DNA from: an uncultured Methanosarcinales archaeon
Lineage (GTDB): Archaea > Nanobdellota > Nanobdellia > Woesearchaeales > DATDXC01
Assembly (NCBI GenBank): GCA_964510025.1
Contig: CAZDZV010000005.1
Coordinates: forward strand, 62,001 to 105,668
Length of the DNA stretch: 43,668 nucleotides
Reading direction: 5' to 3'
The notes under the pieces were generated by a model. That model had not been told where the DNA came from. It saw only the letters and a list, made by a program, of their open reading frames with translations, and searched no databases. This document shows, in pieces, positions 3,214-43,565 of the stretch; the stretch's first letter is position 1, and each line of letters begins with the position of its first letter. The position numbers were made by a program, and so were the translations under genes.

Positions 3214-3843
3214 ATGGAAACACTTGAATGCATACGGAAAAGACGCTCGATTAGAAAGTATAAGGACAAGCCTATTGAATGGGACAATGTGGTCAAAATA
3301 CTGGATGCAGCAAGGATGGCTCCATCTTCAGGAAACATTCAGAACTGGAAGTTTGTGGTTTTAAAGGAGCCTGCTAATATAAAGAAGATAAGTAAGGCAT
3401 GCTATGATCAAGACTGGATATCTGAAGCCCCTGTAGTTATTGTGGCAACAGCGGACCCGGAACAAACAGAAAGGTTCTATGGTGTTAGAGGGGAAAGGCT
3501 GTATAGTGCTCAGAACTGCGCTGCTGCCATCGAAAACATGCTGCTGACTGCCACTGCATTGGGATTGGGATCCTGCTGGGTAGGGGCTTTTGATGAAAGC
3601 AAGATACGAGTGCTGCTACAGCTGCCTGAGGAGATAATACCCCATGCAGTTATTACCATAGGATATGCAGATGAAGCACCCCTCCTCCCCCAGAAGAAAA
3701 GGCTAGAATGGATTGTTGGTCTAGAGAAGTACAAGGGAAGAAAGAAATCACCTATAAGGGGATATATAAGTGAGACAATACCGAAGATAGTAGACGGGGC
3801 CAAGCGTACTGTCAACCGACAGATAAAAAATCTAAAAAAATGA
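3214..3843 (+). CDS. Nitroreductase family flavoprotein
   Basis: RRSIRKY, APSSGNIQNWKFVV, ENMLLTATALGLGSCWVGAF motifs. Confidence 0.92.
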   Translation: METLECIRKRRSIRKYKDKPIEWDNVVKILDAARMAPSSGNIQNWKFVVLKEPANIKKISKACYDQDWISEAPVVIVATADPEQTERFYGVRGERLYSAQNCAAAIENMLLTATALGLGSCWVGAFDESKIRVLLQLPEEIIPHAVITIGYADEAPLLPQKKRLEWIVGLEKYKGRKKSPIRGYISETIPKIVDGAKRTVNRQIKNLKK

Positions 3844-3859
3844 ACTATCTATTCTAGAA

Positions 3860-3876
3860 ACGAAAAGCTTAAATAT
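3860..3876 (+). promoter_or_regulatory. Candidate archaeal BRE-TATA promoter
   Basis: ACGAAAAGCTTAAATA, purine-rich BRE plus TTAAATA; no annotated gene starts 25-30 nt downstream. Confidence 0.4.
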
Positions 3877-3910
3877 TAGTTTATACACAATATATAAAAT
3901 AAGAATTAAG

Positions 3911-4050
3911 TTTTTTTGAGTTTTTTTGGCGAAAAACTCAAATAAATGTGGTTTTTTGGCGAAAACCGGTGTTATTTGGCGTTTTTAGACGCTTTGGAAA
4001 ACGATTTTGTGTTAATAAACATGTTGGCGCACGTTTACTAACTTTTTCTT
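3911..4050 (-). ncRNA. Candidate small RNA with repeated CGCCAA-loop hairpins, divergent from ftsZ
   Basis: Three hairpins with loop CGCCAA (minus strand) at 4011-4042, 3950-3967, 3915-3942, plus a fourth CGCCAA at 3976-3981; minus-strand promoter at 4074-4090. Confidence 0.45.
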
Positions 4051-4073
4051 AGGTAGAATAATAATCAAACGCA

Positions 4074-4090
4074 CATATAAATATTTCGGT
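4074..4090 (-). promoter_or_regulatory. Candidate BRE-TATA promoter on minus strand
   Basis: Minus strand reads ACCGAAATATTTATATG; predicted start near 4045-4050. Confidence 0.5.
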
Positions 4091-4141
4091 ACTCTAATAT
4101 TTATATTGCGGTATATATAAGTCCACAAGAGGGGTGAAAAA

Positions 4142-5212
4142 ATGGAGGTAATTGTGAATAACGCATTGAAGCAGACACAGGAACAACCAGCTGGGGATAT
4201 GCAGATAAACCAGGCCAACATAAAAGTTTTCGGTGTTGGTGGCGCTGGTAACAATATGGTTGGATGGCTATACCAAAAAGGGATAAAAGGTGCCGAAATT
4301 ATAGCTGCAAATACAGATATGCAGCATCTGAATATCATTGATTCAGATAGAAAGATTCTGCTGGGAAGAGGTGTTACCAGAGGATTAGGCTGCGGTGGCT
4401 TTCCTGAAAAGGGAAGTGAATCTGCCCAAGAGTCTTTGCAAGAGATAAAAGAATCCCTTAAAGGCTCAGATATGACTTTTGTATGCGCTGGAATGGGCGG
4501 AGGTACAGGAACAGGAGCAGCACCAATAATTGCACAGGTTGCAAAAGACGCAGGATCTATAGTCATCGGAACAGTGACAATGCCTTTCAAGATAGAAAGA
4601 GCAAGAGTGGATAAAGCTGAATTTGGACTACAGCAACTTAGGCAGGTATCAGATACTGTTATAGTGATAGACAACAACAGGCTTGTAAACATAGCCGGAA
4701 ATCTGCCAATACAACAGGCATTTGCCGTGGCTAACGAGCTAATAGCAACGATGATAAAGGGCATTGTAGAGACAATAGCTGTACCAAGCTTGGTCAACCT
4801 AGATTACGCAGATGTAAAGGCAATAATGACAAATGGCGGAGTAGCTGCAATAGGAGTAGGATCATCAGACACAAACAGCAGAGTGGAGGAAGCTGTCAAG
4901 GGAGCTTTAAGCAACCCCTTACTGGATATTAGCTACAAAGGAGCATCCGGAGCGCTGATACATATACATGGAGGGGCAGATATGACTCTTGATGAGATCA
5001 ACAGAGTTGGAGAGCTAGTAACAGAAAGCCTGGATCCAGATGCGAATGTCATTTGGGGAGCCAGGGTAAGTGATGAAATGAAAGGAAAAATGACAGTGAT
5101 GACCATCATTACAGGAGTGAAGTCCCCATGGATATTAGGAAAAGTAGACTATTCAAAGCCTACCCCCCAAGCATCCCAGCTAGGGGAAGAATTAGGAATA
5201 GAGATAGTCTAG
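4142..5212 (+). CDS. ftsZ: Cell division GTPase FtsZ (FtsZ2-like)
   Basis: GVGGAGNN, tubulin signature GMGGGTGTG, T7 loop VNLDYADV, C-terminal ELGIEIV; SD GGGGTG at 4131-4136. Confidence 0.98.
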   Translation: MEVIVNNALKQTQEQPAGDMQINQANIKVFGVGGAGNNMVGWLYQKGIKGAEIIAANTDMQHLNIIDSDRKILLGRGVTRGLGCGGFPEKGSESAQESLQEIKESLKGSDMTFVCAGMGGGTGTGAAPIIAQVAKDAGSIVIGTVTMPFKIERARVDKAEFGLQQLRQVSDTVIVIDNNRLVNIAGNLPIQQAFAVANELIATMIKGIVETIAVPSLVNLDYADVKAIMTNGGVAAIGVGSSDTNSRVEEAVKGALSNPLLDISYKGASGALIHIHGGADMTLDEINRVGELVTESLDPDANVIWGARVSDEMKGKMTVMTIITGVKSPWILGKVDYSKPTPQASQLGEELGIEIV

Positions 5213-5215
5213 GCA

Positions 5216-5338
5216 AGAAATCATTTTCACCCCTTTAGTCTTGTGGTGAGAATTTCTCTGCCTTCATCTTTAAACCACCCCCAACGTTTCAAAGTGAAGG
5301 CATTTATCTCCCGTGAGGGAGATATTTTTTATTTTTTT
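5216..5338 (+). ncRNA. Structured ftsZ 3'UTR or sRNA with anti-SD motifs
   Basis: Hairpins 5223-5253, 5259-5302 (loop CACCCCCAAC) and 5305-5324; 5224-5246 complementary to 4123-4140. Confidence 0.5.
5305..5338 (+). terminator. Hairpin plus oligo-T terminator
   Basis: TATCTCCC-GTGA-GGGAGATA followed by TTTTTTATTTTTTT. Confidence 0.7.
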
Positions 5339-5352
5339 AAAGAAAAAAGAGA

Positions 5353-5502
5353 TAATTCTATAGTTCATATTATTAGTAATATTTATATTATTGTTATTAT
5401 TTATATAATTTATACTATTTATGTTATTATTATTAATTATAATACTTTAATTACTAGTAATATTAATAATATTTTATATGGTTTTAATCCAAATGTTTTT
5501 TA
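5353..5502. other. Extremely AT-rich low-complexity tract
   Basis: About 150 nt dominated by TAT/TTA/AAT with very few G/C. Confidence 0.8.
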
Positions 5503-5526
5503 AAGAAAAAACAATTTTTGTATGCT

Positions 5527-6264
5527 ATGGCGCTTTACTTGATAGGTATTGGGTTGGGTGATGAGAAAGATATAACCCTTAGTGGCTTGGAGGCAGCGAA
5601 GAGATGCAGCGCGCTTTATTTGGAAAGTTACACCTCAAAGCTCGCAGAAGATGTGGATTTGGGGAGATATTACGGGAAAAAGATAATAAAAGCCAAAAGG
5701 GAAGATATTGAAAATAAGGCCAGCGACATAATTGACAGCGCTAAAGACAAAGATATTGGTATTTTGGTGGTGGGCGACCCACTTGGCGCCACAACGCATA
5801 TCAGTCTGCTATTGGAGGCAAAAAAGAAGGGCATAGATGTGCGGATTATACATAATGCCTCTATATTAACCGCTGTTGGAGAGGTTGGGCTGGAGCTTTA
5901 CAAATTTGGGCATGTTACATCCATACCTTTTAACAACAAGGATATCAAAACCCCCATAGAAATTTTCAAAAGAAACTACAAAGCAAATCTGCATACGTTG
6001 TTTCTTCTGGATTTATCTAGCGGCAAATATATGGGCATACCAGAGGCTGCAGATTACCTCTTAAGCAACGGTTTGGATGAAAATCTAAGGGCTATCGGTT
6101 GCGCTGGAATCGGCAGCATAAATGCTGAGATCAAAGCCGGAAATCTAAGGGGATTGCGGCAATATAAATTTACTCTATATCCCCAGTGCCTTATAATACC
6201 TGCAAAGAAATTGCACTTCATGGAGCAGGAAGCTCTTAAACTATTAGACGCAGGCTCCGTCTGA
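5527..6264 (+). CDS. dph5: Diphthine synthase (diphthamide methyltransferase)
   Basis: LYLIGIGLGDEKDIT, YLESYTS, VGDPLGATTH, HNASI, GLELYKFG, HTLFLLDL, LHFME. Confidence 0.95.
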   Translation: MALYLIGIGLGDEKDITLSGLEAAKRCSALYLESYTSKLAEDVDLGRYYGKKIIKAKREDIENKASDIIDSAKDKDIGILVVGDPLGATTHISLLLEAKKKGIDVRIIHNASILTAVGEVGLELYKFGHVTSIPFNNKDIKTPIEIFKRNYKANLHTLFLLDLSSGKYMGIPEAADYLLSNGLDENLRAIGCAGIGSINAEIKAGNLRGLRQYKFTLYPQCLIIPAKKLHFMEQEALKLLDAGSV

Positions 6265-6558
6265 GCAAGCTCCATCACACCTTAGGTTTCTATTTAAAGG
6301 CTTGCTTCCCTCACAATAATACTCTATGAGCAAACCAGCTATGCACCTATCTACAAGATTAAACTGGTCTCCATCTGTCCTTCCGGATACATAACCTTTC
6401 TGTGAGTCGTCGATTCCGTTGTCAGTATCCTCGCATTCATCAAGCTGGGCTGTTTCCTGCTCAGAGTCCAGTACCATATTGCCTGTCATGTCCTTGCTTT
6501 TGCACCCTACAAAAATGAATAAAAGAAATACAGCAAGCAATATTCGCTTCATTTTCAT
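6244..6558 (-). CDS. Small Cys-rich lipoprotein
   Basis: Signal peptide with lipobox FVGC; CEDTDNG..KG..DRC..LIEYYC..C..C.DGAC disulfide module. Confidence 0.75.
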   Translation of the reverse strand: MKMKRILLAVFLLFIFVGCKSKDMTGNMVLDSEQETAQLDECEDTDNGIDDSQKGYVSGRTDGDQFNLVDRCIAGLLIEYYCEGSKPLNRNLRCDGACSDGACV

Positions 6559-6638
6559 AGATGGATTATTTGGGGATTTAAATATTTTTCTAAGAAAAAA
6601 GCAAATTTTATAAATCTCTCAGAAAATCTAAAGGACGA

Positions 6639-6739
6639 AGTCCCGTGGTGTAGTGGTCAAGCATTTCGGCTTTTGGAGTTGGAAAATGGATTTCCGGCAA
6701 AAACAGCCGAAGACGGCAGTTCGAGTCTGCCCGGGACTA
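6639..6739 (+). tRNA. tRNA-Gln(UUG) with 28-nt intron at canonical 37/38 position (intron 6677-6704)
   Basis: Acceptor AGTCCCG/CGGGACT, anticodon stem TCGGC/GCCGA with TTG at 6673-6675, T arm GGCAG-TTCGAGT-CTGCC, strict bulge-helix-bulge; CCA not encoded; TATA TTTATAAA upstream. Confidence 0.95.
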
Positions 6740-8047
6740 TTTTAGCGGCCTAGATTCATAGACTTGATGCATAGCTTTCTTGTCAGAAGATCTTATCCTG
6801 GCCTGCCATCCGAGCACTTGTAAAGCCTTATCAGGATTTGCAAAAAGTGCGGGTGGGTCTCCTGGTCTCTTATCCCATTCTACCACTACTAGGGCCTTCT
6901 CAGGCAGTGAAGCATGCACCTGCAGCAGCGCAGGCCTGCCATTTTCCAAACGCGCTATATCATAGCTATCTCCCCTTTGGTCTTTTTTTAAGTACACCAA
7001 CGGAACACCTGCTCCCAGGGCAATAAGCTTCATCATCTCTGCATTGGATGTTCCTGTGCCTGTTCCCAGATTATAGGCGCCGGCAGGGGCTCCAAGAGCT
7101 GCAATGTGCGCATCAGCAAGGTCAACAACATGTATGTAGTCTCTTATGCATGTGCGGTCCGGTGTTGGGAAGTCGGTGCCAAACAAAGAAAGAAACTGTG
7201 ATTTTGCCAGGTTATCAGTGTTGTGGTATGCATGAACCCTATCCATTGCAAGAGGAATCAGATGGGTTTCAGGATCATGATCTTCTCTTAATCCGGGATG
7301 GACCCCCCATGCATTAAAATAGCGAAGCTCTACAAAATCTTTTCCAAATTTTTCTGCAAAATACTCAAGAGTGAGCTCATTCATAACCTTTGTCCAACCA
7401 TAAACATTCACCGGATGGCGTAGTCTAGTCTGGGCTTCAGGAGCACTAACATAATCGAGAAATTCCTGATTACCGCTGAATTCCTTGCGTGTAAGCTCCA
7501 TAAGATATTGGTGTAAATCCTCTCCGCCTAGTTTTCCTTTATTGGTATCAGCAGGATCGAGAGCAGACTTTTGTATAGGATCAAGCACCCGCTCTTCTGT
7601 AAAACCTCCTGCCGGGTCCATATCACCAAAAGCAGCTGCTGTGGATGATTTTATAATGCGGGGAACATTGCCCCTATAGAGAACTTCAGCCAGCGTATAG
7701 AATTTGGCGACATTGTTGTTGAAATATTCTTCTGGATCATGCATAGATGTTCCTGCCTCTATCAAAGCAGCAAAATCAATACATGCGTCTATCCTATGGG
7801 CAGCCAATATCCTGCCTAATAGATGAGCATCGCCTACATCCCCATCATAGCCCTGGAATCGTTCAGATCCGTAGGGGATTTCTGTCATCCGGGCAATGCG
7901 GTCTATTGTCTTTTGGGTTCCATTGAAACCTTTATCGCTAACCTGATCCAAAAGAACTATGTTGAGCTCAGCTTGCTGAAGCATCCTCAGTACTGTGTGG
8001 CCACCGATATATCCTGCTCCGCCAGTTACCAGTATTGTCCCAGCCAT
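6737..8047 (-). CDS. UDP-glucose 4-epimerase-like extended SDR with insertions
   Basis: TGGAGYIG, SSTAA, YGWTK, LRYFNA, RDYIHVVDLADAH, RPGDP; 436 aa, longer than typical GalE. Confidence 0.88.
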   Translation of the reverse strand: MAGTILVTGGAGYIGGHTVLRMLQQAELNIVLLDQVSDKGFNGTQKTIDRIARMTEIPYGSERFQGYDGDVGDAHLLGRILAAHRIDACIDFAALIEAGTSMHDPEEYFNNNVAKFYTLAEVLYRGNVPRIIKSSTAAAFGDMDPAGGFTEERVLDPIQKSALDPADTNKGKLGGEDLHQYLMELTRKEFSGNQEFLDYVSAPEAQTRLRHPVNVYGWTKVMNELTLEYFAEKFGKDFVELRYFNAWGVHPGLREDHDPETHLIPLAMDRVHAYHNTDNLAKSQFLSLFGTDFPTPDRTCIRDYIHVVDLADAHIAALGAPAGAYNLGTGTGTSNAEMMKLIALGAGVPLVYLKKDQRGDSYDIARLENGRPALLQVHASLPEKALVVVEWDKRPGDPPALFANPDKALQVLGWQARIRSSDKKAMHQVYESRPLK

Positions 8048-8194: not shown

Positions 8195-8650
8195 ATGGCA
8201 CGGATGCATTCAAGAAGAAAGGGAAAAGCAGGAAGCACAAAACCTGCTAAGAAAAATGCACCAATATGGCTGAGGTACAAGCCAAAGGAGATTGAGCTTC
8301 TTATAGTTAAACTATCAAAAGAGGGCAAAAGCCCATCCCATATAGGTCTTATACTGAGAGACACATATGGTATTCCTGACGTTACCCTGATCCTAAAAAA
8401 AAGCATCACCGATATACTGGCTGAAAAGAAACTGCTGCCTGAGATACCTGAGGACCTTAGAGCGCTGATAAGGAAGGTGGTAGATATAAGGAAGCACCTT
8501 GAGTCCAACCATAAGGATGAGACTGCAAAAAGGGGCCTTATACTGAGTGAATCCAAAATTAAGAGGCTTGTCAAGTACTATAAAAGAACAAGAAAACTAA
8601 GCTCTGACTGGAAGTACGATCCAGAGAAGGCTGCCCTGTTCACTGAATAA
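8195..8650 (+). CDS. rps15: 30S ribosomal protein uS15 (archaeal S15/S13e type)
   Basis: MARMHSRRKGKAGS, IGLILRDTYGIP, IPEDL, ESKIKRLVKYYK; SD AGGTGAT. Confidence 0.98.
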   Translation: MARMHSRRKGKAGSTKPAKKNAPIWLRYKPKEIELLIVKLSKEGKSPSHIGLILRDTYGIPDVTLILKKSITDILAEKKLLPEIPEDLRALIRKVVDIRKHLESNHKDETAKRGLILSESKIKRLVKYYKRTRKLSSDWKYDPEKAALFTE

Positions 8651-9458
8651 GCCTTATTTTTTCTATTGCTTTCTTTATTACCGAATCCGGGGTAGAGGCT
8701 CCAGCTGTGATGCCGGCCACAGCCTTTCCCCTAAACCAGGCCTCATCTATCTCTGCTCCAGTCTCAATGTGCTTTGTCATCACAACTGAGCTGCACAAAG
8801 CTGCTAATTGCCTGGTGTTAGCGGAATTATGGCCGCCTATGACTATCATAATATCAACCTCTTTTGCCAGATCCAGAGCTGCAGACTGCCTTTCCTGAGT
8901 TGCGTTGCATATGGTGTTTATAAGCCTGACTTCGTCTGCGTGTTGCTTAAGCTCATCGCTAATCTCTATAAAGTGGCCTAATTTTTGAGTGGTCTGTGCT
9001 ACAACACCGATTTTTTTGAAATGCGGCATTTTCCTTGCGTCTTTCAAATCATCGACTATTATGCCCCCCTCTAGGTTTTGCTTTATTGCCTCTACCTCTG
9101 GATGGCCTTTTTGTCCGACTATAATGACCTGGTAACCCTTGCTTTCCAGCTCCTTTGCGTAATCCTGGACCTTCTTTACGAACGGACAGGTAAGATCCAG
9201 CACCTGAAGCCCCTTGGCTTTAATCTCTTTTAAAAGCCTATCAGGGACCCCATGCGTCCTGATCACCACCTTATCTGAATCTACCTGATCTATGGAATCA
9301 ACTGCCTTTATCCCTCTTGACTCTAGATATTTTACGAACTGGGGATTGTGTATCAAAGGGCCCAGGGTATTCACCTCTCCCTTCAATTCAAGCACACATT
9401 CTACTGCTCTTTTTACACCAAAACAAAACCCATGCCTATCAGCTATTCTTACTTCCAT
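8640..9458 (-). CDS. ispH: 4-hydroxy-3-methylbut-2-enyl diphosphate reductase
   Basis: GFCFGV, IHN, THG, TCPFV, GHPEV, QTT, TICNAT, SANT, AGASTP; three Fe-S Cys present. Confidence 0.97.
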   Translation of the reverse strand: MEVRIADRHGFCFGVKRAVECVLELKGEVNTLGPLIHNPQFVKYLESRGIKAVDSIDQVDSDKVVIRTHGVPDRLLKEIKAKGLQVLDLTCPFVKKVQDYAKELESKGYQVIIVGQKGHPEVEAIKQNLEGGIIVDDLKDARKMPHFKKIGVVAQTTQKLGHFIEISDELKQHADEVRLINTICNATQERQSAALDLAKEVDIMIVIGGHNSANTRQLAALCSSVVMTKHIETGAEIDEAWFRGKAVAGITAGASTPDSVIKKAIEKIRLIQ

Positions 9459-10249
9459 TTTGTCCGGGTTGCATATACATATGGATATTTATTTTTCAGA
9501 TTATCATAAGCCTGCATCAATTTTTCTTTATCCTGAAATATTCCAAAGACAGTAGGGCCTTTTCCTGTAATTGAAGCATTTAGGGCTCCTTCCCCATTTA
9601 GGCTGCCTACCATATCCCTGACAATTGGCTTCTGTATATAAATGAAATCGTTATGTAGTGCAGAGCTGATTTCTTCGATATTACCAGCTTTTCTCATCTT
9701 AATGCTCGCTGACTTTCTCTGCTTGTGGACCTTATCCATCTGCGCATAGGCTTCTTTAGTGGAGAGCTGGTATCCTGGATTCACCAATAGGATATTCATT
9801 TTAGCAGCGTGCAGCTCTTCCACCTTATCTCCGTAGCCTGATACAAAAGAGCAGTTTCCTTTAAGAAAAAAAGGAACATCGGCCCCCAATTCACAGGCTA
9901 TCTTTGTAAGCTGGGAGCTGTCAAGGTTGAGATCCCATATCTTGTTCAGGGCCAGCAGCGCAGCAGCTGCATCAGAGGAGCCACCGCCGAGTCCGGCTCC
10001 TGCAGGGATATTCTTCCTTATCTTTATCTCAACCCCCGATTGGACATCAAAAAGCGTTCTTAGCTTCAGGGCTGTCCGTCGGACAATATCATCTTTGAAT
10101 TCTGAAGCTACAACAACATCCTGGTTGCGCGTGAAAAACAGCTCATCAAACAAGTCAATTTTCTGCATAACAGAATTGATATTGTGGTATCCGTCTTTTC
10201 TTTTATCAAGAACGTCTAGGGCGAGATTTATCTTAGCATAGGCCTTCAT
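9449..10249 (-). CDS. ispE: 4-diphosphocytidyl-2-C-methyl-D-erythritol kinase
   Basis: AKINLAL, IPAGAGLGGGSSDAA, LGADVPFF, HNDF; cluster context. Confidence 0.95.
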   Translation of the reverse strand: MKAYAKINLALDVLDKRKDGYHNINSVMQKIDLFDELFFTRNQDVVVASEFKDDIVRRTALKLRTLFDVQSGVEIKIRKNIPAGAGLGGGSSDAAAALLALNKIWDLNLDSSQLTKIACELGADVPFFLKGNCSFVSGYGDKVEELHAAKMNILLVNPGYQLSTKEAYAQMDKVHKQRKSASIKMRKAGNIEEISSALHNDFIYIQKPIVRDMVGSLNGEGALNASITGKGPTVFGIFQDKEKLMQAYDNLKNKYPYVYATRTKWK

Positions 10250-11403
10250 TTTTTATTCAAAGTCACAACCGCCGAAGCCTTAATTCCCTGTCCCTTGCCC
10301 CATGGCGTCAGGTCCTCACCTGATGTCGCAGTTATCCCCACATCAGACCTGTCAAGAGTGCAGAGAGATGCTATGCTTTCCTTTATCTTTTCCTCATATT
10401 CATCTATCCTTGGCTTTTTGGCCTCGATCATAATCCCTATATTGCCGATGGTGTAGCCCCTTTCTGCCGCCATTTTAAGGGCCTTCTCAAGATATTTTTT
10501 GCTGTCAGTTATGCCCTTTTCGTACATCTTATCGGCATAAAAGCCTATGCTCTTGCCCCCTGTTGCCTGGCTTACCGCATTGAATAATGCATGCAGGATA
10601 ACATCTCCATCTGAGTTTGCGTCCAGTCCTTTTTCACCATCTATCTCTACGCCACCAAGCACAAGCTTCTTCTGCTCACTTTCCACGAACCGATGGGAGT
10701 CCTCGCCTAAACCTACCCTTGACGCTTTTGTTATGTTCCTGGCGACTGTTAGATCCACAGGATAAGTTATCTTGACATTTTCAGGGTTTGTCTCTATAAC
10801 CTTAACCTTCCTAGCCATCCTCTCGACCAACGAGACATCATCAGTACCGTAGAATTCTTCCTCGTAAGCTTTCTTAAATGACCTGACGGCCAAACCATAT
10901 TTTATGGCCTGGGGAGTCTGCATCTGCCACAGCTTTTTTCTTTCAAGGGTCTTTTCCACAAAGCCTTTCTCATCCACTTGCTTTATCGTATCCTTTGCTC
11001 TATGGGCGGCGGCAGCTGCCCCATATTTCATGGCTGCGTTTATAGTCTCTGCGATTGTCTTTTTGGTAACAAAAGGATTTACGGCATTGTGGATGACTAC
11101 AATGTCGGATGCCTTAAGCGTGTGAAGATACAGTATGCCGTTGTTCACAGAGTCCTGACGTCTTTCGCCCCCTTCAAGAACCTTCTCAATCTTATCGAGA
11201 TTATGCTCCTGCTTTAGTCTTTCGATCTCAGTGAAATATTCTTTTTTTGCAATTATGATGATCTTGTCGATGAAATCACATTCATGAAAGGTCTTTATGG
11301 AATAGTATATTATCGGCTTGTCATCCAATAATCTGAGTATCTTATTCACTCCGTCGCCCATGCGCCTGCCAATGCCTGCCCCCAAGATTAATGCTACATT
11401 CAT
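10246..11403 (-). CDS. ispDF: Bifunctional IspD-IspF fusion
   Basis: IspD: GAGIGRRM, GGERRQDSV, QTPQ, TDDVS, NVKITYP; IspF: GEDSHRF, SDGDVILHA, GITATSGE. Confidence 0.95.
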   Translation of the reverse strand: MNVALILGAGIGRRMGDGVNKILRLLDDKPIIYYSIKTFHECDFIDKIIIIAKKEYFTEIERLKQEHNLDKIEKVLEGGERRQDSVNNGILYLHTLKASDIVVIHNAVNPFVTKKTIAETINAAMKYGAAAAAHRAKDTIKQVDEKGFVEKTLERKKLWQMQTPQAIKYGLAVRSFKKAYEEEFYGTDDVSLVERMARKVKVIETNPENVKITYPVDLTVARNITKASRVGLGEDSHRFVESEQKKLVLGGVEIDGEKGLDANSDGDVILHALFNAVSQATGGKSIGFYADKMYEKGITDSKKYLEKALKMAAERGYTIGNIGIMIEAKKPRIDEYEEKIKESIASLCTLDRSDVGITATSGEDLTPWGKGQGIKASAVVTLNKK

Positions 11404-12527
11404 CTTTCTTCTGCCTTATCTTTTATTCTCTTATCCACCTCTAGGATCTGGTCTAAGGATGGTTGTTTAATAATTTTATGATTGTCTAGAGTCTCCTTTA
11501 TCCTTTCAGCAATATCCAAGAATCCAATCTTGTTGTCAAGGAATGCTCTTACTGCTACCTCATTGGCAGCATTCATAGCAGCCGGCATCGTTCCCCCTGC
11601 TTTTCCGGCTTCGTAAGCATATCCTAAACACGGAAAAAGATCAAGGTCGGGCTCTCTGAAATCAAGACTCTTGAGCTGAGCTAAATTCAGGCTTCTATGC
11701 TCGCTGGCAAATCTTTTTGGATAGGATAATGCATATTGGATAGGTATCTTCATATCAGGCCACCCTAGCTGCGCTAAAACAGAAGTGTCTTTAAACTCCA
11801 CAAGAGAATGCACTATTGACTGGGGGTGTATAACAACATCGATATCCCCATAATCAACCTTGAATAGGTGATGGGCCTCGATAACTTCAAGCCCCTTATT
11901 CATCAATGTGGCGGAGTCTATTGTTATCTTAGCCCCCATATTCCAGTTAGGGTGCTTAAGAGCATCCTCTTTAGTGACATTTTTCAGTTGCGCTGCTGAT
12001 CTATCCCTGAATGATCCGCCTGAACACGTCAAGATGATCTTCCTGATATCCTTAGAGTCCTCTCCTTTAAGGCACTGAAATATCGCTGAGTGTTCTGAGT
12101 CGATAGGTGTCAGCTGAACACCTTTTTTTTTCGCCAGCTGCATCACTATTCTTCCAGCCGCTACAAGCGTTTCCTTGTTCGCAAGCGCAACATCTTTGCT
12201 TGCTTTTATTGCTTCTACTGTGGGAACAATTCCTATGCTCCCCACCATGGAATTCAAGACAATATCACAGCTATCTAAGCTGGCTAGCTTTGCAAGCCCT
12301 TCCATGCCTGAGAGCACCGGGATATCTGCTCTCAGGGAATCTGCTTTCTCCTTTTCGAAAACAGCGACAGCTTCTGGACTAAATTCCTCAATCTGCTTTG
12401 CCAGCAGGCCGATATTTGAATTGCATGCCAAAGCCTTAACCTGGAATCTGGAAGGATTATTTCTTACAATCTGCAATGCCTGTGTCCCTATACTGCCTGT
12501 TGAGCCCAGTATCACTACGCGCTTCAT
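11400..12527 (-). CDS. dxr: 1-deoxy-D-xylulose 5-phosphate reductoisomerase
   Basis: LGSTGSIG, LANKE, PIDSEHSAIFQ, HPNWNMGAKITIDSATLMNKGLEVIEA, PDMK, NAANE. Confidence 0.98.
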   Translation of the reverse strand: MKRVVILGSTGSIGTQALQIVRNNPSRFQVKALACNSNIGLLAKQIEEFSPEAVAVFEKEKADSLRADIPVLSGMEGLAKLASLDSCDIVLNSMVGSIGIVPTVEAIKASKDVALANKETLVAAGRIVMQLAKKKGVQLTPIDSEHSAIFQCLKGEDSKDIRKIILTCSGGSFRDRSAAQLKNVTKEDALKHPNWNMGAKITIDSATLMNKGLEVIEAHHLFKVDYGDIDVVIHPQSIVHSLVEFKDTSVLAQLGWPDMKIPIQYALSYPKRFASEHRSLNLAQLKSLDFREPDLDLFPCLGYAYEAGKAGGTMPAAMNAANEVAVRAFLDNKIGFLDIAERIKETLDNHKIIKQPSLDQILEVDKRIKDKAEER

Positions 12528-12551
12528 AGACAGTCAGTAAACTGCAGTTCA

Positions 12552-12566
12552 TTTTAAAGGTTTTTA
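12552..12566 (-). promoter_or_regulatory. TATA-type promoter for dxr-ispDF-ispE-ispH
   Basis: Minus strand AAAAACCTTTAAAA about 25 nt upstream of the dxr ATG (leaderless geometry). Confidence 0.55.
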
Positions 12567-12639
12567 TAGTAAAGTAAATTTATATTGTTATTGAAAAGTA
12601 ACAAAAGCTTTAAAAGAAGGGGCTGATTACAGGAGCTAA

Positions 12640-13521
12640 ATGACAGTAACATACTTGACAAAGATATTCAGAATAGCGGCAGATTTGGCTATTAGGCAGA
12701 AAAAAAGAGAGGGTGTGCCATGCCGGCTTGATGATCTGGCAGAAGCTACAGGTATTGGCAAGGCCTATATTTCACAAGTGCTTCACTCAAACAGAAGATA
12801 TGAATCGATGGAACCAGAAAGATTTAACAGTCTTTGTGGTGCCTTAAACCTCGAGCCCGATACATATCTTGTAAAAAAAGTTGAAGCACGGCTGCTTGGC
12901 GGAGAAACAGTAAGCATTGATGATTTTCTGCCTCATTCTAGCCCGTATTATGTAAAGCCACCCAAAGATATTTCAACCAGCAGGGCAGCTTATTTCAGCG
13001 AAATCTTTGCCCTTATCGCAGTGAGGGCTCTTGCCGGAAATAAAAGGATAGGAGAACAGCCGCACAGCCAGGCTGATCTAGTACGCCTTACAGGATACAA
13101 TAAAGGTCAATTATGTCAAATGCTGGATGAGAACAATGAATTTAATCTTGTTAATCCTGAGAAATTCAAAAAACTCTGCAGTGCCCTAGACCTTGATCCA
13201 GATGCATTTCTTGTTAGGGAGGTTGAAGAAAGGCTGCTCAGAGGTGAACGAATAACATATCGGAGCTTTATCCCTCAAATCCAACTTACTGCCTATGAAC
13301 TTCCATCCGAAGTTATGCTAATCGGGGAGCTGAAGGGGGATGCACTTAGATACGCATACGCAGTTCCATCTACAGAGGTCGGGACCTTTGCTGCAGACCA
13401 GGGAATCGGCATATGGGAGGCTGCAAGACAGCTATGGGAAACGGCTGGGCTGAAAGGATTATTCACAGTACGCCCTTTTTCACCTGATAACACTAGGGCT
13501 TATGAATTTAAATCAAGTTAG
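12640..13521 (+). CDS. Hypothetical protein with two internally repeated Xre/Cro-like HTH modules
   Basis: LDDLAEATGIGKAYISQVL..FNSLCGALNLEPDTYLVKKVEARLLGGE versus QADLVRLTGYNKGQLCQML..FKKLCSALDLDPDAFLVREVEERLLRGE. Confidence 0.75.
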   Translation: MTVTYLTKIFRIAADLAIRQKKREGVPCRLDDLAEATGIGKAYISQVLHSNRRYESMEPERFNSLCGALNLEPDTYLVKKVEARLLGGETVSIDDFLPHSSPYYVKPPKDISTSRAAYFSEIFALIAVRALAGNKRIGEQPHSQADLVRLTGYNKGQLCQMLDENNEFNLVNPEKFKKLCSALDLDPDAFLVREVEERLLRGERITYRSFIPQIQLTAYELPSEVMLIGELKGDALRYAYAVPSTEVGTFAADQGIGIWEAARQLWETAGLKGLFTVRPFSPDNTRAYEFKSS

Positions 13522-14535
13522 TCTGCCGACAATCTTATCTATAATCTCCTGCTCTTTGACTTTCTCTACTATCTGGCCTTTCTCATAGAGCAAGCACCTG
13601 TCCTTTCCACCAACAACACCGATATCAGCTTCTTTTGCCTCGCCTGGACCATTTACACAGCAGCCCATTATCGCTATCTTGATTGGATCCTTCAGGCTGG
13701 CTGTTTTTTCTTCGATTTTTTTTGCGATAGCTGCTACATCTATGTCTGCCCTGGCGCAGGTGGGGCATGCAATTACGCTGATGCCCCTTTGTCGCAAATT
13801 CAGGGCCTTTAAAATCTGCCAGCCTGCCTTAACCTCTTCAACAGGATCACCTGACAATGAAACCCTTATTGTGCTTCCTATGCCTTCTGAAAGCAGGATT
13901 CCTATCCCTACAGCATTATTGATGGCCCCTGTAAATACCGAACCTGCTTCAGTGACCCCAAGATGGAGCGGATAGTCATATTCTTCTGAAAAAAGGCGAT
14001 TTGCCTTCACCATCTTATTAACATCTGATGATTTCAGCGAAACAACTGTATCATAGAAATCATTTTTTTCAAGGAAAGAAATCTCTTTAGCTGCAGAGGC
14101 TACCATTGCTTCCGGCGTTAGACCATATCTCCCCTCAATATCCTTATCCAGGCTGCCCAGATTAACGCCCACCCTGATGGGAATAGCATTGTCTTTGGCT
14201 GCCTGGATGACCTTCTTCACTTTCCGCTGATCACCAATGTTCCCTGGATTGATCCTGAGCTTATCGGCAAATTTTGCAGATTCTATCGCCAGCCTATAGT
14301 CAAAATGAATGTCTGCAACCAAAGGAATTGCAATGTTTTCTTTTATCTCTTTCAATGCATAAGCTGAATCCATGTCAGGAACACTTACCCGGACTATCTC
14401 ACAGCCGTGCTCTTCCAGATCATGAATCTGCTCTATTGTAGAAGACGTGTCGGTGGTCTGGGTAGTACACATGCTTTGCACTGTAACAGGAGAATCCCCC
14501 CCTACTGTGATATTGCCCACCCTAATCTTTTTCAT
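13513..14535 (-). CDS. ispG: (E)-4-hydroxy-3-methylbut-2-enyl-diphosphate synthase
   Basis: VQSM, PLVADIHF, RINPGN, IRVGVN, LHLGVTEAG, CPTCAR, MGCCVNGPGEA. Confidence 0.98.
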   Translation of the reverse strand: MKKIRVGNITVGGDSPVTVQSMCTTQTTDTSSTIEQIHDLEEHGCEIVRVSVPDMDSAYALKEIKENIAIPLVADIHFDYRLAIESAKFADKLRINPGNIGDQRKVKKVIQAAKDNAIPIRVGVNLGSLDKDIEGRYGLTPEAMVASAAKEISFLEKNDFYDTVVSLKSSDVNKMVKANRLFSEEYDYPLHLGVTEAGSVFTGAINNAVGIGILLSEGIGSTIRVSLSGDPVEEVKAGWQILKALNLRQRGISVIACPTCARADIDVAAIAKKIEEKTASLKDPIKIAIMGCCVNGPGEAKEADIGVVGGKDRCLLYEKGQIVEKVKEQEIIDKIVGRLT

Positions 14536-34826: not shown

Positions 34827-35087
34827 ATGGTGGCAGTAAAGATACAAATAATTAAGGAAAATGCAATCATCCCAAAACTAGCACATGAGGGGGATGCTGG
34901 TGTAGACCTGTATTCTACTGAGGATTATGAGCTGAGTCCTGGAGCCAGGACCCTGGTATCCACTGGAATCAAGATAAGCCTGCCCGATGGATATGAAGCA
35001 CAGATCAGACCCAAATCAGGGCTTGCTCTGAAAAATGGCATCTCTGTTCTAAATACACCGGGGACTATCGATTCAGGATATAGGGGG
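34827..35087 (+). CDS. dut: dUTPase, 5' part only (cut at junction)
   Basis: Motifs 1-3 [22 protein letters not shown] present; motifs 4-5 absent. Confidence 0.93.
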
Positions 35088-35095
35088 CGAGCTCA
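35082..35095. other. Archaeal/alphaproteobacterial junction (probable chimera)
   Basis: Abrupt switch from AT-rich to very GC-rich sequence; dut and alr both truncated. Confidence 0.92.
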
Positions 35096-35529
35096 CGCGC
35101 CCCGGCATCGGCCTGTATGGCGGCGCGCCCTTCGCCGAGGCCGAGCCGGTGGTCGCGCTGTCGCTGCCGGTGATCCAGACCCGCCTCGTCCGCCCGGGCG
35201 AGAGCGTGGGCTACGGCGCCACCTGGACGGCGCGGCAGGACACGCTGGTGGCCACCGTCGCCGCCGGCTACGCCGACGGGCTCGACCGGCACCTGTCGAA
35301 CGCGGGCACGCTCTGGTCCGGCGGCACGCCCTGCCCGATCCTCGGCCGCGTCTCGATGGACCTCATCGGCTGCGACGTCACCGCGCTGCCGGAGTTCCCC
35401 GAATGGCTGGACGTGCTCTGCCCCGCCCAGGGCATCGACGCGCTGGCAGAGGCCACCGGCACCATCGGCTACGAGGTGCTCACCACGCTGGGCCGCCGCT
35501 ACGCGCGCCGCTACGCCGGGCCCGCATGA
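35089..35529 (+). CDS. alr: Alanine racemase, 3' part only
   Basis: [37 protein letters not shown]. Confidence 0.95.
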
Positions 35530-36299
35530 GGGCGCTGGCCGCCATCGGCGCCTCCACGCTCGCCCTGCTGGCGGGCGCGGGGCGGGCGACGCTGTTCCTG
35601 CTGGCCGGCCTCCGCGCGTTGGTCCTGCCGCCGTTCTATGTCCGGGAGTTCGCCCGTGCCCTCGCGACGATTGGGTATTTCTCGCTGCCGGTCGTCGGGC
35701 TGACGGCCTTTTTCACCGGCGGCGCGCTGGCGCTGCAGATCTACGACGGCGGCGCGCGCTTCAACGCGCAGTCGGTCGTCCCCTCGATCGTCGCCATCGG
35801 CATGGTGCGCGAGCTCGGCCCCGTCCTCGGCGGGCTGATGGTGGCCGCGCGCGTGGCCTCCTCGATCGCCGCCGAGATCGGCACCATGAAGGTGACCGAG
35901 CAGATCGACGCGCTCGTCACCCTCTCCACCGATCCGATGCGCTACCTCGTCGCCCCGCGCCTGCTGGCCGGCACCCTGGCCGTGCCCGCCCTGGTGGCGG
36001 TGGGCGACGCCATCGGCATTCTCGGCGGCTGGATCGTGGGCACCTCGCGGCTGGGCTTCAACTCCGCGGTCTATCTTCAGACGACGGCCGATTATCTGGA
36101 AGCGGCGGACGTCGTCTCCGGGCTCGTGAAGGGGGCCGTCTTCGGCCTGATCGTCGCGCTGATGGGCTGCTTCTTCGGCATGACGTCGGGCCGTGGGGCG
36201 CAGGGCGTGGGCCGGGCGACGAAATCGGCCGTGGTCTCCGCCTCCATCCTCATTCTGGCTGCCAACTACCTGCTGACGGAGGTTTTCTTCTCGGCATGA
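35526..36299 (+). CDS. mlaE: MlaE-family ABC permease
   Basis: [36 protein letters not shown] overlap with the alr stop. Confidence 0.95.
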
Positions 36300-37042
36300 T
36301 CGCGGTGGAGGGGCTGTGGAAGGCGTTCGGCGACACGCCGGTGCTCCGGGGCGTGTCGCTGCAGGTCGCCGCGGGCGAAAGCTGCGTCGTGATCGGCGGC
36401 TCGGGCACGGGAAAATCCGTCCTTCTCAAGTGCATCCTCGGCCTCGTTCAACCGGATGCCGGGACCGTCTCGTTCGAGGGAAGGCCGCTGACGCAGGGGA
36501 ATCGCGCGGCGTTCCTCGACCGGTTCGGCATGCTGTTCCAGGGCGCGGCGCTGTTCGATTCCCTGCCCGTCTGGCAGAACGTCGCCTTCCGCCTGCTGCG
36601 CGGCGCGGCGAAGCGCCCCCGGGAGGAGGCGCGCGCCATCGCGCTGGAAAAGCTGCGCCGGGTCGGCCTGTCGGCGGACGTGGCCGACCTGTACCCGGCC
36701 GAGCTGTCCGGCGGGATGCAGAAGCGCGCGGGCCTCGCGCGCGCGATCGCCGCCGATCCCGAGATCATCTTCTTCGACGAGCCTACGACGGGCCTCGATC
36801 CGATCCTCGCGGGCGTGATCAACGCGCTGATCCGCGAGATCGTCACCGAGATGGGCGCCACCGCGATCACCATCACCCACGACATGACCTCGGTGCGCGC
36901 CATCGCCGACCGGGTGGCGATGCTGCATGACGGGGTCGTCCAGTGGCAGGGGACCGTCGCAGAAATGGACATCACGCCAGACCCTTGCGTGTCGCAGTTC
37001 ATCCACGGCCGGGCCGAGGGGCCGATCAGCGCGCTGCGCTAG
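36296..37042 (+). CDS. mlaF: MlaF-family ABC ATPase
   Basis: [34 protein letters not shown]. Confidence 0.95.
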
Positions 37043-38520
37043 TTCTCGTCCGGCAGGGCCGGCAGGTCGAAGATCTGGCCGGGATAGATCAGGTCGGGGT
37101 CGCGGATCTGGTCGTCGTTGGCCTCGAAGATGTGGACATAGTCGAAGCCGCTGCCGTAGCGATCGCTGGCGATGCCCCACAGCGTGTAGCCCGGCTGCAC
37201 GGTGATCAGGCGCGCGCGCAGCGCGGTCTGCCCCGGCGCGTCGACGGCGCCCGTTTCGAGCCGGGCGAGCCCCGCCGGATCCTCGCGCTTGAAGGGCGTC
37301 TCGAACCGCGAGACGACCCGGCCCGACCGGTCGAGCTGGTCCACCCGCAGCGTGTACAGGCCGCTGCGGAGCTCGGCGATGGGCAGCCGCCAGGTGCCGT
37401 CGGCACGGATGGGCGCGCTGTCCACGGGCGCACCGTCGAGATACACGCGCACCGAATCCACAGGCGGCGGGGGCGGCGCCGAGCGGCCCTCCAGGAGCAC
37501 CGCGCCGTCGGCGGCGTAGCTGATCACGTCCACCGTCACCCGGTCCGCGGGCTGCGCGCCCGGCGCTGCGGGCTGCAGCATCCGCACGCCCTCGCGGTCG
37601 GCGAACAGCACCGCCGGCGCCGCCCCCCCCGGCCGGGGCGCCTCCGCCGACGCCTCCGGACGCGGAAGCGGCGGCTCCGCGCCGCCGGTCGGCCGCGCCG
37701 CGCGGGCCGATCGCTCCGTCGCGGCCCCGGTCGCGCCGGTCCGCGCCGGAGCCGGAACGGCGGCGCGCAATTGCGGCGGCGCTGCCGCGCCCTTGCCGCT
37801 CGCCACGCCGGATCCGCGTGTCTTTCCCGGCAGATCCGCGACGGTGTTCGGCCGTGCGGGCCGCACCGGCGAGGCGTCCACCGCGGCGGCCGTTTCCGGC
37901 GCGCCTTGCCGGGGGGCGCGGCCGTTCCTCGCCGGGGCAGCCGGCGCCGAGGCGGCGGGGCGGGCCCGCGCCGCGCCGGGCGACGGGGCGATCACCACCG
38001 CTCCGGCGGCACGCCGCTCGGCGCCGTCGGGGTCGCGCGCGACGAGTTCGAGCACACGCCCGCCGTCGTCCCGCGGCAGATCGAGGAAGAGCACGAAACC
38101 GCCACGGTCGTCCGCCCGTGCGGTGGCGGCGGTGGCCCCGTCGACGTCGACGCGCACCGCCTCCCCCGGTTCGGCCCGGCCCGCCACGAGCACCGAGCCG
38201 TCCGCCTCGGCCCGTACCAGCTCGAACCGCGGCGCGGGCCGCGCGGCGGTCGCGTTCGCGAGGCCCGCTCGATCGCGGAGGGGCGCGGCCGCCACGTCGT
38301 CCGCCAGGTCCGCCCGGGCCGGGCCGTCCGAGCCCGCAGGCGGCGCGCTGGCCGCTTCGCGCCCGTCCGAGGGAGGGGCAGCCGCCTCCGGGGCCGGAAG
38401 CCGAGGCGCGTCGCGGGGGCCTGCCCAGAAGACGGCGTGCACGACCCACGCGGCGGCGGCGATGCTCGCCCCGCCCCCCAGGACCATGCCGGTCCGGTTG
38501 CCCCAGCTGCGCCGTGCCAT
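37039..38520 (-). CDS. LysM-domain protein with two Ig-like repeats and Ala/Pro linker
   Basis: C-terminal TVQPGYTLWGIA..IFEAN..IRDPDLIYPGQ; repeated DG.V...GR..VRV..DG. Confidence 0.9.
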   Translation of the reverse strand: MARRSWGNRTGMVLGGGASIAAAAWVVHAVFWAGPRDAPRLPAPEAAAPPSDGREAASAPPAGSDGPARADLADDVAAAPLRDRAGLANATAARPAPRFELVRAEADGSVLVAGRAEPGEAVRVDVDGATAATARADDRGGFVLFLDLPRDDGGRVLELVARDPDGAERRAAGAVVIAPSPGAARARPAASAPAAPARNGRAPRQGAPETAAAVDASPVRPARPNTVADLPGKTRGSGVASGKGAAAPPQLRAAVPAPARTGATGAATERSARAARPTGGAEPPLPRPEASAEAPRPGGAAPAVLFADREGVRMLQPAAPGAQPADRVTVDVISYAADGAVLLEGRSAPPPPPVDSVRVYLDGAPVDSAPIRADGTWRLPIAELRSGLYTLRVDQLDRSGRVVSRFETPFKREDPAGLARLETGAVDAPGQTALRARLITVQPGYTLWGIASDRYGSGFDYVHIFEANDDQIRDPDLIYPGQIFDLPALPDEN

Positions 38521-38624
38521 CGCCTTCCCCCGGCAGGCCAGTCGAAAGATGCTGACGCCGCTTGTGAGCGTCGGTCAAGATCGCTACTCCACCACAAGAT
38601 ATAGGTGAAGCGGATGTGACTGCC

Positions 38625-39200
38625 ATGCCCCACGGCCCGTTCTCGGTCTGCGTCTATTGCGGCTCGCGCGACGGGGCCGATCCCGCCTTCGCGGCCGACG
38701 CCGAGGCCGTGGGCCGCCTGCTCGCCGGCCGCGGCTGGCGGCTGGTCTACGGCGCGGGCGATGTCGGGCTGATGGGGCGCGTGGCCCGGGCGGCGCAGGC
38801 GGCCGGCGGGGCGACGTTGGGCGTGATCCCCGAGCATCTCATGGCCCGCGAGGTGGGCAAGCGCGACCTCGACACGCTCGTCGTCACCGAGACGATGCAC
38901 GAGCGCAAGAAGGTGATGTTCATGAACGCCGACGCCATCGTCGTCCTGCCCGGCGGCGCGGGCACCCTCGACGAGATGTTCGAGGCGCTCACCTGGCGCC
39001 AGCTCGGCCTACACGACAAGCAGGTTTTCCTTCTCAATACAAGCGGTTACTGGACACCCTTCACCGAACTTCTGAAAAGCGTCGTGGCGGGCGGCTTCGC
39101 CGCGCCGGATCTCGTGCGCATGGTCACGGTGGCGAGCAGCGTGGCCGCGCTCGGCGACGCGGTGGACTTCGTCGCCGCCTCGCGGGGGCACGGCGGCTGA
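38625..39200 (+). CDS. LOG family phosphoribohydrolase (TIGR00730-like)
   Basis: VCVYCGS, LVYGAG..GLMG, MHERK, PGGAGTLDE. Confidence 0.95.
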   Translation: MPHGPFSVCVYCGSRDGADPAFAADAEAVGRLLAGRGWRLVYGAGDVGLMGRVARAAQAAGGATLGVIPEHLMAREVGKRDLDTLVVTETMHERKKVMFMNADAIVVLPGGAGTLDEMFEALTWRQLGLHDKQVFLLNTSGYWTPFTELLKSVVAGGFAAPDLVRMVTVASSVAALGDAVDFVAASRGHGG

Positions 39201-39231
39201 ACGCCCGTGGCCCTGCGGGCCGCGGCCCGCC

Positions 39232-39855
39232 TCAGCCCTCGGCGCCGGCCTCGGGGGCGCTTCCGTCGCCGGGCGCGGTCGCGGGCGGCACCTCGCCCTC
39301 GCCGCAGGAGCGGGCGATGAGGTCCTCGAAGCGCTGGGTGAGCCAGGTCAGCGCCTGCTCCTGATCGGCGATCTCGCCGGCGATCTGCTCCTGCAGCGAC
39401 TGGAAGATCTGCTCCGAACGGCTGTCCTCCACGATCGGCAGGCCCTCGGTGCCGGCGACGAAATCGTAGACGATGAGCGCGATCACCACGAGCAGCATCC
39501 CCCGCAGCGCGCCGAACAGGAAGCCCAGCCCCTGGTCGATGGCGTTCAGCGCCGAGCGCTGCACGAGCGAGGAGAACAGCGGCGCGAACAGCGCAACCAC
39601 GATCAGTACCACCGCGAAGACCGCCGCGAAGGCGGCGATGGTGGAGGCCGCGCAGTTCTCGAGGAAGTCCGAGACGACGGGGATTTCGCGGATCAGCGGC
39701 TCGGCCCGCGGCGCGAACATGTAGGCGAGCACCGCGGCCGCCACCCAGCCCGCGATCGCCAGCGCCTCGCGCACGAAGCCGCGCGCATAGGCGAGGATCG
39801 CCGAGATCACGATGACGACGGCGACGCCCGCATCGACGAGAGTGAAGCCTTCCAT
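39232..39855 (-). CDS. cvpA: CvpA family membrane protein
   Basis: RGFVREAL, IDQGLGFLFGALRG; downstream of radA. Confidence 0.92.
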   Translation of the reverse strand: MEGFTLVDAGVAVVIVISAILAYARGFVREALAIAGWVAAAVLAYMFAPRAEPLIREIPVVSDFLENCAASTIAAFAAVFAVVLIVVALFAPLFSSLVQRSALNAIDQGLGFLFGALRGMLLVVIALIVYDFVAGTEGLPIVEDSRSEQIFQSLQEQIAGEIADQEQALTWLTQRFEDLIARSCGEGEVPPATAPGDGSAPEAGAEG

Positions 39856-39952
39856 GCGTCCGCCTTCCTGCCCCCCGCGGGGCCGGGCCCCGCGCCCCAT
39901 CCGGTCGTCCGGGGTCGCCGCGCCGCGGCGGGGACCCGCCCGGTCCGGCGCC

Positions 39953-41347
<1,395 letters not shown>

Positions 41348-41387
41348 GTCTGCGCTCATGCCCTGCCCGCGCCCGGGCGGCAAGGGC

Positions 41388-41441
41388 GGGTGCGGGGGCC
41401 AGCCCCCGCACCCCCGGAGTATTTGCGCCAAGATGATGGGG
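41388..41441. repeat. REP-like palindromic intergenic element
   Basis: GGGTGCGGGGGC-CA-GCCCCCGCACCC followed by CCGGAGTATTTGCGCCAAGATGATGGGG; single copy in window. Confidence 0.55.
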
Positions 41442-41554
41442 CAGCAGAGCGGGGGCCGGGCGGGCGCGGCGCCCTGCGGCGGGCCGCCCGGCCCCGAAGG
41501 CGGCGGTTGCGGCGTGCTGCGACGCGGGGCGCTGTCCGGTGGGGCGCGTGCCGC

Positions 41555-42334: not shown

Positions 42335-42510
42335 GTGCGTGCTCTCCCTGTTGCGGTCGCCCCGCGCCTTAGCACCGGGGCGCGCGGGCGGGAAGGCGGG
42401 TTGCCGCCGCTCGCCCGCGGCAGCCGCCCGCCCGTTGCCCCGCGCCCCCGGCGCGGCTATCGGAAGGCGACACGGGGCACCGGGAGCGGCGAGGGGGCAC
42501 GGGAGGGCCG

Positions 42511-43545: not shown

Positions 43546-43565
43546 TCGCGCAGGAGGAGACAGGG

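Follow-up and report, generated by a model that had tools for sequence, protein, structure and literature searches.

The C-rich loops of the staphylococcal RNAs RNAIII and RsaE seed on Shine-Dalgarno (SD) sequences and make two-site contacts, and the ftsZ-DE RNA motif is a bacterial motif downstream of ftsZ. In Actinobacteria, the 6C sRNA is a hairpin with a C-rich loop that pairs with G-rich mRNA sites of many targets, including dnaB, and is chaperone-independent, according to two reports (PMC6486639; PMC7308464). The cuckoo RNAs of Alphaproteobacteria (PMC4615179) consist of 2 to 4 adjacent hairpins, each with CCUCCUCCC, and have an anti-SD-like loop and a variable stem sequence. In the aapA3 and hok type I toxin mRNAs, a far-downstream anti-SD sequence can close over the ribosome-binding site of the full-length mRNA (PMC6733600). 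The transcription factor CdrS is reported to control ftsZ2 in other archaea and to occur in all major archaeal groups except DPANN (PMC7439475).

The window (the whole stretch of 43,668 nucleotides analyzed here) contains an ftsZ gene; among the nearest named relatives of its protein, most carry the label Woesearchaeota. The second ftsZ paralogue of this genome is followed by secE-, spt5- and rpl11-like genes, a neighborhood that we take to mark FtsZ1, and the ftsZ of the window is therefore assigned to FtsZ2. The features of the locus are as follows.

3926..4029, plus strand: four TTGGCG repeats (at 3926, 3956, 3976 and 4024), upstream of the ftsZ2 promoter
4046-4051 and 4076-4083, plus strand: TTCTWA box and TATA box, conserved as judged by eye over aligned upstream regions
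4123..4130, plus strand: 5'-UTR box CCACAAGA, which complements the hairpin-1 loop and is restricted to one clade
4130..4140, plus strand: G-run SD AGGGGTGAAAA of ftsZ2
4142..5212, plus strand: ftsZ, 356 aa, FtsZ2 type (Pfam Tubulin and FtsZ_C, TIGR00065)
5216..5256, plus strand: hairpin 1 (variable), in which 5224-5246 holds the 18-nt complement of 4123-4140
5259..5302, plus strand: hairpin 2, the conserved core, with stem UGCCUUCAU / GUGAAGGCA and a C/A-rich, G-poor loop
5276-5282, plus strand: CACCCCC in the loop of hairpin 2
5305..5338, plus strand: predicted terminator-like hairpin (5305-5324), then a U-run

Hairpin 2 behind ftsZ2, hereafter the element, was compared with the described systems. 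Like 6C, it is a hairpin whose C-rich loop matches G-rich mRNA sites; unlike 6C, it is archaeal, has a single C-loop hairpin with a stem of its own, and is carried by its likely first target, in the 3' UTR. Like the cuckoo RNAs, it has a stem that varies in sequence and bears an anti-SD-like loop, and it occurs in tandem in some loci (4/134). The loop, however, reads ACCACCCCC or AUCACCCCC, which suits a G-run SD rather than canonical GGAGG, and a tally of loop motifs did not find the 2 to 4 hairpins with CCUCCUCCC by which PMC4615179 defines that family. Unlike aapA3 and hok, the gene concerned is an essential division gene of 1.07 kb and no toxin, no antitoxin was seen, and the long duplex is clade-restricted. 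RNAIII and RsaE, which gave no Rfam match here, differ in size, structure and lineage, and the ftsZ-DE motif is alike in its position behind ftsZ. Control by CdrS is alike in being dedicated to ftsZ2 and unlike in being exerted by a transcription factor, one reported absent from DPANN.

At the gathering threshold, Rfam 15 yielded a tRNA alone in positions 3800-6800 of the window and no match in seven element loci; the 6C, cuckoo, RNAIII and RsaE families were not matched in this search. The tRNA gene (6639-6739), missed by ARAGORN, has about 31 extra nucleotides in the anticodon loop, likely an intron. The element would work like the C-rich-loop sRNAs, and by the tests run it is a member of none of these families. 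A literature search confined mostly to open-access papers, supplements excluded, found no published description of the element; a motif table in PMC5737381, the main text of which does not contain "ftsZ", or a similar survey may hold it. Neither "sRNA" nor "post-transcriptional" occurs in the accessible part of PMC7617429.

The plus strand from 3843 to 4142 contains no ORF of 60 aa or more. From the usual archaeal spacing, transcription of ftsZ2 would start near 4105, and the conserved TTGGCG-TTCTWA-TATA promoter thus places the paired 5' region within the predicted transcript. An earlier reading of the sequence alone (the sequence-only reading) had made its proposed pairing depend on a start that does not lie downstream of the paired region, and the promoter indeed puts the expected start upstream. 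The TTGGCG repeats are probably transcription-factor sites: at least two copies were present in 73/103 element-bearing ftsZ2 loci versus 1/21 element-less loci, and ftsZ2 is the sole gene of this genome with at least two copies, three contig-edge script artefacts aside.

Several other observations were made on the layout. The TTGGCG array is specific to element-bearing ftsZ2, and one sister-order TBP promoter (L544) has it too. Second ftsZ2 copies (L187, L189, L190, L192, L195, L196, L197, L201) share another promoter motif, of the form AGTATAC-AAAAACG-TAACA-TTTATAT. Between the terminator and a diphthine-synthase-like methylase gene, positions 5345-5500 are very AT-rich. MEP-pathway gene clusters are unusual for archaea; by eye, 8640-14535 and the region upstream hold an MEP-pathway-like cluster, the genes of which are presumably ispH, ispE, ispD/F, dxr, ispG and a dxs-like gene. 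At 35085-43668, the GC content, about 40% before, climbs to 70-78% partway through a dUTPase gene and does not fall again before the contig ends; foreign GC-rich DNA has probably been joined on here in a chimeric assembly.

The sequence-only reading had proposed that the segment behind ftsZ2 can pair with the ribosome-binding region of the same gene. The 11-nt reverse complement (5224-5234 with 4130-4140) and the 8-nt reverse complement (5239-5246 with 4123-4130) are both exact, and since A4130 sits in both blocks, they form an 18-bp duplex with a 5-nt bulge over the SD. When whole predicted mRNAs were folded from four start points, 4123-4139 paired with 5225-5246 at a probability of 0.57-1.0. 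Folded alone, the 3' region forms three hairpins (-40.3 kcal/mol, z -4.5; 0/200 shuffles as good), and the local structures that had been pointed out were recovered: the alternative stem ATTTTCACC/GGTGAGAAT, a second hairpin with the anti-SD loop CACCCCC at 5276-5282, and behind it, on the plus strand, a U-run preceded by a terminator-like stem (5305-5324). The two-block exact complement (18 bases) is the longest among 1495 called genes of this genome, the next being 14, and 0/1000 dinucleotide shuffles exceeded 15. By net binding energy, the pairing of ftsZ2 with its own 3' flank is less extreme, ranking 40/1490, and the ftsZ2 ribosome-binding site as a target of the element ranks 5/1490, among gene calls from a simple ORF caller that gets some starts wrong. 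The own 5'/3' pairing of SepF (rank 3/1490 here) was set aside; its 3' flank resembles the coding sequence of a convergent gene.

A fold-back of this kind could act as a strict lock in cis, in which the 3' end of the complete ftsZ2 mRNA covers the ribosome-binding site of that mRNA and the element has no other target; translation would then occur only during synthesis or after 3' trimming, as in the aapA and hok toxin mRNAs. The 18-bp duplex and the whole-mRNA fold of this genome favor such a lock, and so do the separate long complements directly after the stop codon in several lineages (L070, L090, L095, L101, L105). In the clade of this genome, the GTGG loop of hairpin 1 accompanies the CCACA partner box, with 17/21 loci versus 3/113, nearly all of one clade. 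Under a wider definition, 30 loci have the hairpin-1 loop, and in these its pairing with the box ahead of the SD reaches -12.2 kcal/mol, versus -6.2 kcal/mol in 79 others; 6/8 tree pairs agree. Second ftsZ2 copies without the element also fit a lock, as they mostly have a canonical SD, even where the genome holds the element elsewhere.

Across the relatives, however, the conserved complementarity and 5'/3' compensatory changes expected from the sequence-only reading did not appear. An exact complement of at least 13 nt was present in 7/110 loci versus 11/330 shuffles, and cognate flanks paired no better than swapped flanks (26 versus 27 of 55 and 44 versus 40 of 91 tree-independent pairs). In whole-mRNA folds, the SD was paired to the 3' UTR in 17/31 loci and in 34/62 runs with a shuffled 3' UTR, so that real and shuffled 3' UTRs take up the SD equally often. 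The idea of a switch found no support. This shuffle control ruled out whole-mRNA folding as order-wide evidence, although among other G-run genes such folds paired the SD to the 3' UTR in only 10/60. An all-against-all advantage of cognate flanks (-1.07 kcal/mol, 0/10000 permutations) was set aside because kin are not independent, and it was gone in tree pairs. Given the shuffles, the swapped flanks and the rarity of long complements, the fold-back outside the clade rests on C-richness. The fold-back is thus plausible from the folding models in this genome and its clade, where cognate 5'-3' pairing of the hok/aapA type is seen, while order-wide the cognate flanks equal the swapped ones. A strict lock would also leave unexplained the element copies without ftsZ and the G-runs of PCNA and TBP, and we consider it unlikely. 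Of the ftsZ 3'-UTR control first proposed, what stood is a conserved structured RNA with an exposed anti-SD loop. Its conserved core does not lie in the 18-nt fold-back of hairpin 1.

The conserved core is hairpin 2. Initially 110 ftsZ2 loci were fetched, further matches and hand-picked second copies were added, and 9 loci were dropped (2 duplicates and 7 with cut flanks), giving 134 ftsZ2 loci. Hairpin 2 was found behind ftsZ2 in 110/134 loci, 8-232 nt after the stop codon. In an alignment of 86 loci, 96.2% of cells were paired, and the stem had 56 double changes, whereas shuffles gave 9.5 (0/500 as good) and slid controls no more than 16, counts that are inflated by kinship, as the tool warned. 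The primary sequence of the stem is nearly invariant within the order and the loop length is variable; together the loops contain 1062 C and 159 G in 2738 nt. The element thus has the conserved stem with an unpaired C-rich loop of a C-rich-loop anti-SD RNA. A U-run follows within 80 nt in 108/110 loci, and the terminator is, by prediction, common with the parent mRNA, as in 3'-UTR-derived sRNAs. A TCA-type motif precedes hairpin 2 in 62/110 loci, and a U-rich stretch lies between ftsZ2 and hairpin 2 in 34/110.

A covariance model of hairpin 2 (R1) gave a single strong match in this genome (60.2 bits) and 28 strong matches in 41 genomes, all behind ftsZ2; many of these had served to train the model. 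When 149 genomes were drawn from the whole class, R1 matched 15 of the 20 same-order genomes listed; the 10 same-order matches new to this draw were all behind ftsZ, and 7 weak matches in other orders were not. A metagenome scan blind to ftsZ gave at least 119 pattern loci; among those listed, 86 had ftsZ upstream, and of the rest 6 were cut too short, 21 were GC-rich with no or a weak model score, and 6 scored well without ftsZ. The element is a real, class-wide RNA behind ftsZ2 and apparently undescribed.

Some loci differ from this picture. Just after the ftsZ2 stop codon, L053 and L054 have other inverted repeats and no element; their proteins group with those of element-bearing L044-L046, and replacement by an insertion is possible. 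The GC-rich metagenome contigs L778, L788, L798 and L840 carry a related hairpin with a CACCCCC loop, a low R1 score and no ftsZ, which may be a separate RNA motif. A gene starting with MKA(R/K)K (S-layer-like) was rejected as a target of a hairpin-2 arm, the pattern matching the element itself save in one place in 41 genomes.

The element was also considered on the opposite strand. There, an SD followed by ATG AAG GCA could encode a small peptide, or the G-run could act as a decoy that mimics a ribosome-binding site, and a start codon indeed lies 3-17 nt after the G-run in 93/110 loci. The remaining 17/110 loci have no start, however, and in the 110 loci the minus-strand ORFs range from 2 to 417 codons and share no peptide beyond the MKA imposed by the stem, so that the conserved start, length and peptide of a small protein are not seen. 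The polarity of the flanks likewise points to the plus strand, with a U-run after hairpin 2 in 108/110 loci versus an A-run before it in 3/110, and the alignment contains 69 G-U versus 37 A-C oppositions. A function on the minus strand is therefore very improbable.

On the plus strand, the loop faces a G-run SD. A GGGG SD was found in 101/110 element-bearing ftsZ2 genes versus 8/24 element-less copies. In unconstrained duplex energies, the loop out-pairs the 16S tail on its own ribosome-binding site in 101/110 loci (-13.1 versus -10.4 kcal/mol), and one fixed loop beats the 16S tail at 95/110 element-bearing versus 8/24 element-less ftsZ2 genes and 340/951 SD-led genes of this genome. An altered 16S tail as the cause of G-run SDs was rejected: the tail is canonical in 10/12 loci of relatives, the 16S of this genome not having been found.

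The coupling of SD and loop was then corrected for kinship with FastTree trees, the traits having been defined after looking at the data. In a tree of 134 proteins, just 5 independent pairs bore on the coupling of SD and C-run (p 1). With 182 proteins, tree-independent pairs agreed in 5.5 versus 0.4 cases, with a median p of 0.0625 for CCCC and 0.22 for CCCCC. After tree correction, the coupling is only suggestive.

The absence of significance would fit a hairpin that binds a protein or serves ftsZ2 mRNA stability or termination; C-rich loop and G-run SD would then each be kept for a reason of its own. Such a role would also agree with the near invariance of the stem within the order and with a G-run SD that persists on TBP in 15/29 sister-order genomes. 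It agrees less well with the joint loss of SD and C-run in separate clades (L576, L579, L188, L190, L627), or with loci in which both sides changed, namely L578 (GGAGGG with CCCTCC) and five GAGGTGG loci, most of which have the loop ACCACC. The sister order, moreover, altered the stem and kept the C-run loop. Other orders of the class contributed 49 ftsZ2 loci, of which 34 have both a G-run SD and CCCC within 70 nt of the stop codon, 8 have neither and 7 have one alone; the CCCC background in this genome is 15/186 and 78/1317 genes. A GGGC...CCCC...GCC stem pattern occurs in 21/49 of these loci, mostly as AGGGCA...ACCCCC...UGCCCU, with a U-run in 20/21, and R1 does not detect this sister-order stem. 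Since the stem differs and the layout is kept, the C-run loop is the conserved thing. A purely protein-binding or stabilizing hairpin is, in our judgment, quite improbable, although the near-invariant stem sequence, which base pairing does not explain, suggests a bound protein.

We lean, with somewhat better than even confidence, toward a 3'-UTR anti-SD RNA that limits ftsZ2 translation and possibly acts on a G-run regulon. The ftsZ2 3' UTR contains a non-coding module that runs from a variable hairpin 1 through a U/C linker to hairpin 2, whose ACCCCC loop is unpaired, and ends in a terminator. By stronger pairing, the ACCCCC loop would out-compete the 16S tail for GGGGG(U) ribosome-binding sites and so block initiation. 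The first target would be the ftsZ2 mRNA itself, so that every completed transcript, or a 3' piece cleaved from it, would damp FtsZ2 synthesis in a negative feedback. In the clade of this genome, hairpin 1 would touch the mRNA at another place as well, the CCACA box and the SD. Together with the TTGGCG promoter array, the module may fill the place that CdrS control of ftsZ2 has in other archaea.

The anti-SD RNA would probably also act in trans on other mRNAs with a G-run SD, for example those of PCNA and TBP. G-run SDs are common in this genome (172/1503 genes). That other mRNAs have such leaders, as the sequence-only reading had suspected, was borne out across the order, where the G-run is kept in 27/30 PCNA and 26/30 TBP genes, two genes chosen because their copies in this genome have G-runs. 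By comparison, a G-run SD was found in 7/30 SepF and 6/20 FtsZ1 genes, the 20 FtsZ1 loci coming from 41 genomes, and SepF keeps GGAGG across the order in the PCNA/TBP/SepF survey (L454-L513). Across the order, each gene thus inherits its own SD type, G-run for ftsZ2, PCNA and TBP and canonical for SepF and FtsZ1. A 3' C-run of their own is nearly absent from PCNA (2/27) and TBP (1/29). In the sister order, the G-run SD is found in 6/29 PCNA and 15/29 TBP genes, though ftsZ2 usually keeps the C-loop there, and genome G023 (96% complete) has no R1 match, yet carries G-run SDs on PCNA and TBP. A G-run regulon is suggested by these leaders.

Copies of the element also occur without ftsZ. In a 34.7-kb tailed-virus record with terminase, portal and capsid genes, hairpin 2 and a terminator follow a small hydrophobic gene (39.8 bits); the record is 88% complete and contains no ftsZ and no tyrosine integrase. 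G-run SDs precede 3/51 called ORFs of this record, and its capsid protein has 30-41% relatives in 3/301 genomes of the order, which points weakly to a host in the order. At least four metagenome loci are clearly without ftsZ (L772, L830, L805, L845), and L860 and L863 are uncertain for their short flanks. The L772 copy lies behind a head-tail adaptor and the L830 copy near a serine recombinase; with the virus copy there are at least five ftsZ-free copies, three of them beside virus or integrase genes, and several lack a terminator. Looser viral scans gave no further strong R1 match among 48 loci and among the 80 of 119 loci that were scored, and the sister-order pattern gave 120 mostly chance matches, of which one passes the AT/U-run filter.

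Judged from their neighbors, the ftsZ-free copies are consistent with a trans-acting RNA captured by viruses or with integration remnants. Copies near a serine recombinase (L830) or a head-tail adaptor (L772) or within a virus contig, several of them without a terminator, could be taken to mean that the element is mainly a DNA site at which viruses integrate and that its conservation follows from this use. The covariation agrees instead with an RNA stem whose loop varies in length, the 88%-complete virus record holds no tyrosine integrase (the only type searched), and an attachment site would bring the host no benefit in most genomes. Such a site may explain the mobile copies only and is hardly to be expected as the main role of the element.

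For the anti-SD RNA that we favor, these findings would bear directly on division control. The one known regulator of ftsZ2, CdrS, is reported missing in DPANN, and the element is a concrete candidate for division control there. For this candidate a seed and a target site are predicted, and loci that lost the element provide natural controls; the gene-by-gene SD type can be tested in vitro without culturing the organism. The viral copies suggest host takeover or an integration hotspot. More broadly, and as a possibility that we regard as doubtful, the ftsZ2 transcript of Nanoarchaeia may release a C-loop RNA that serves as a cell-cycle regulator and reads a second class of SD, the G-run of ftsZ2, PCNA and TBP, so that division, replication and transcription factors would be damped jointly, and viruses may have captured this RNA to stall the host cycle.
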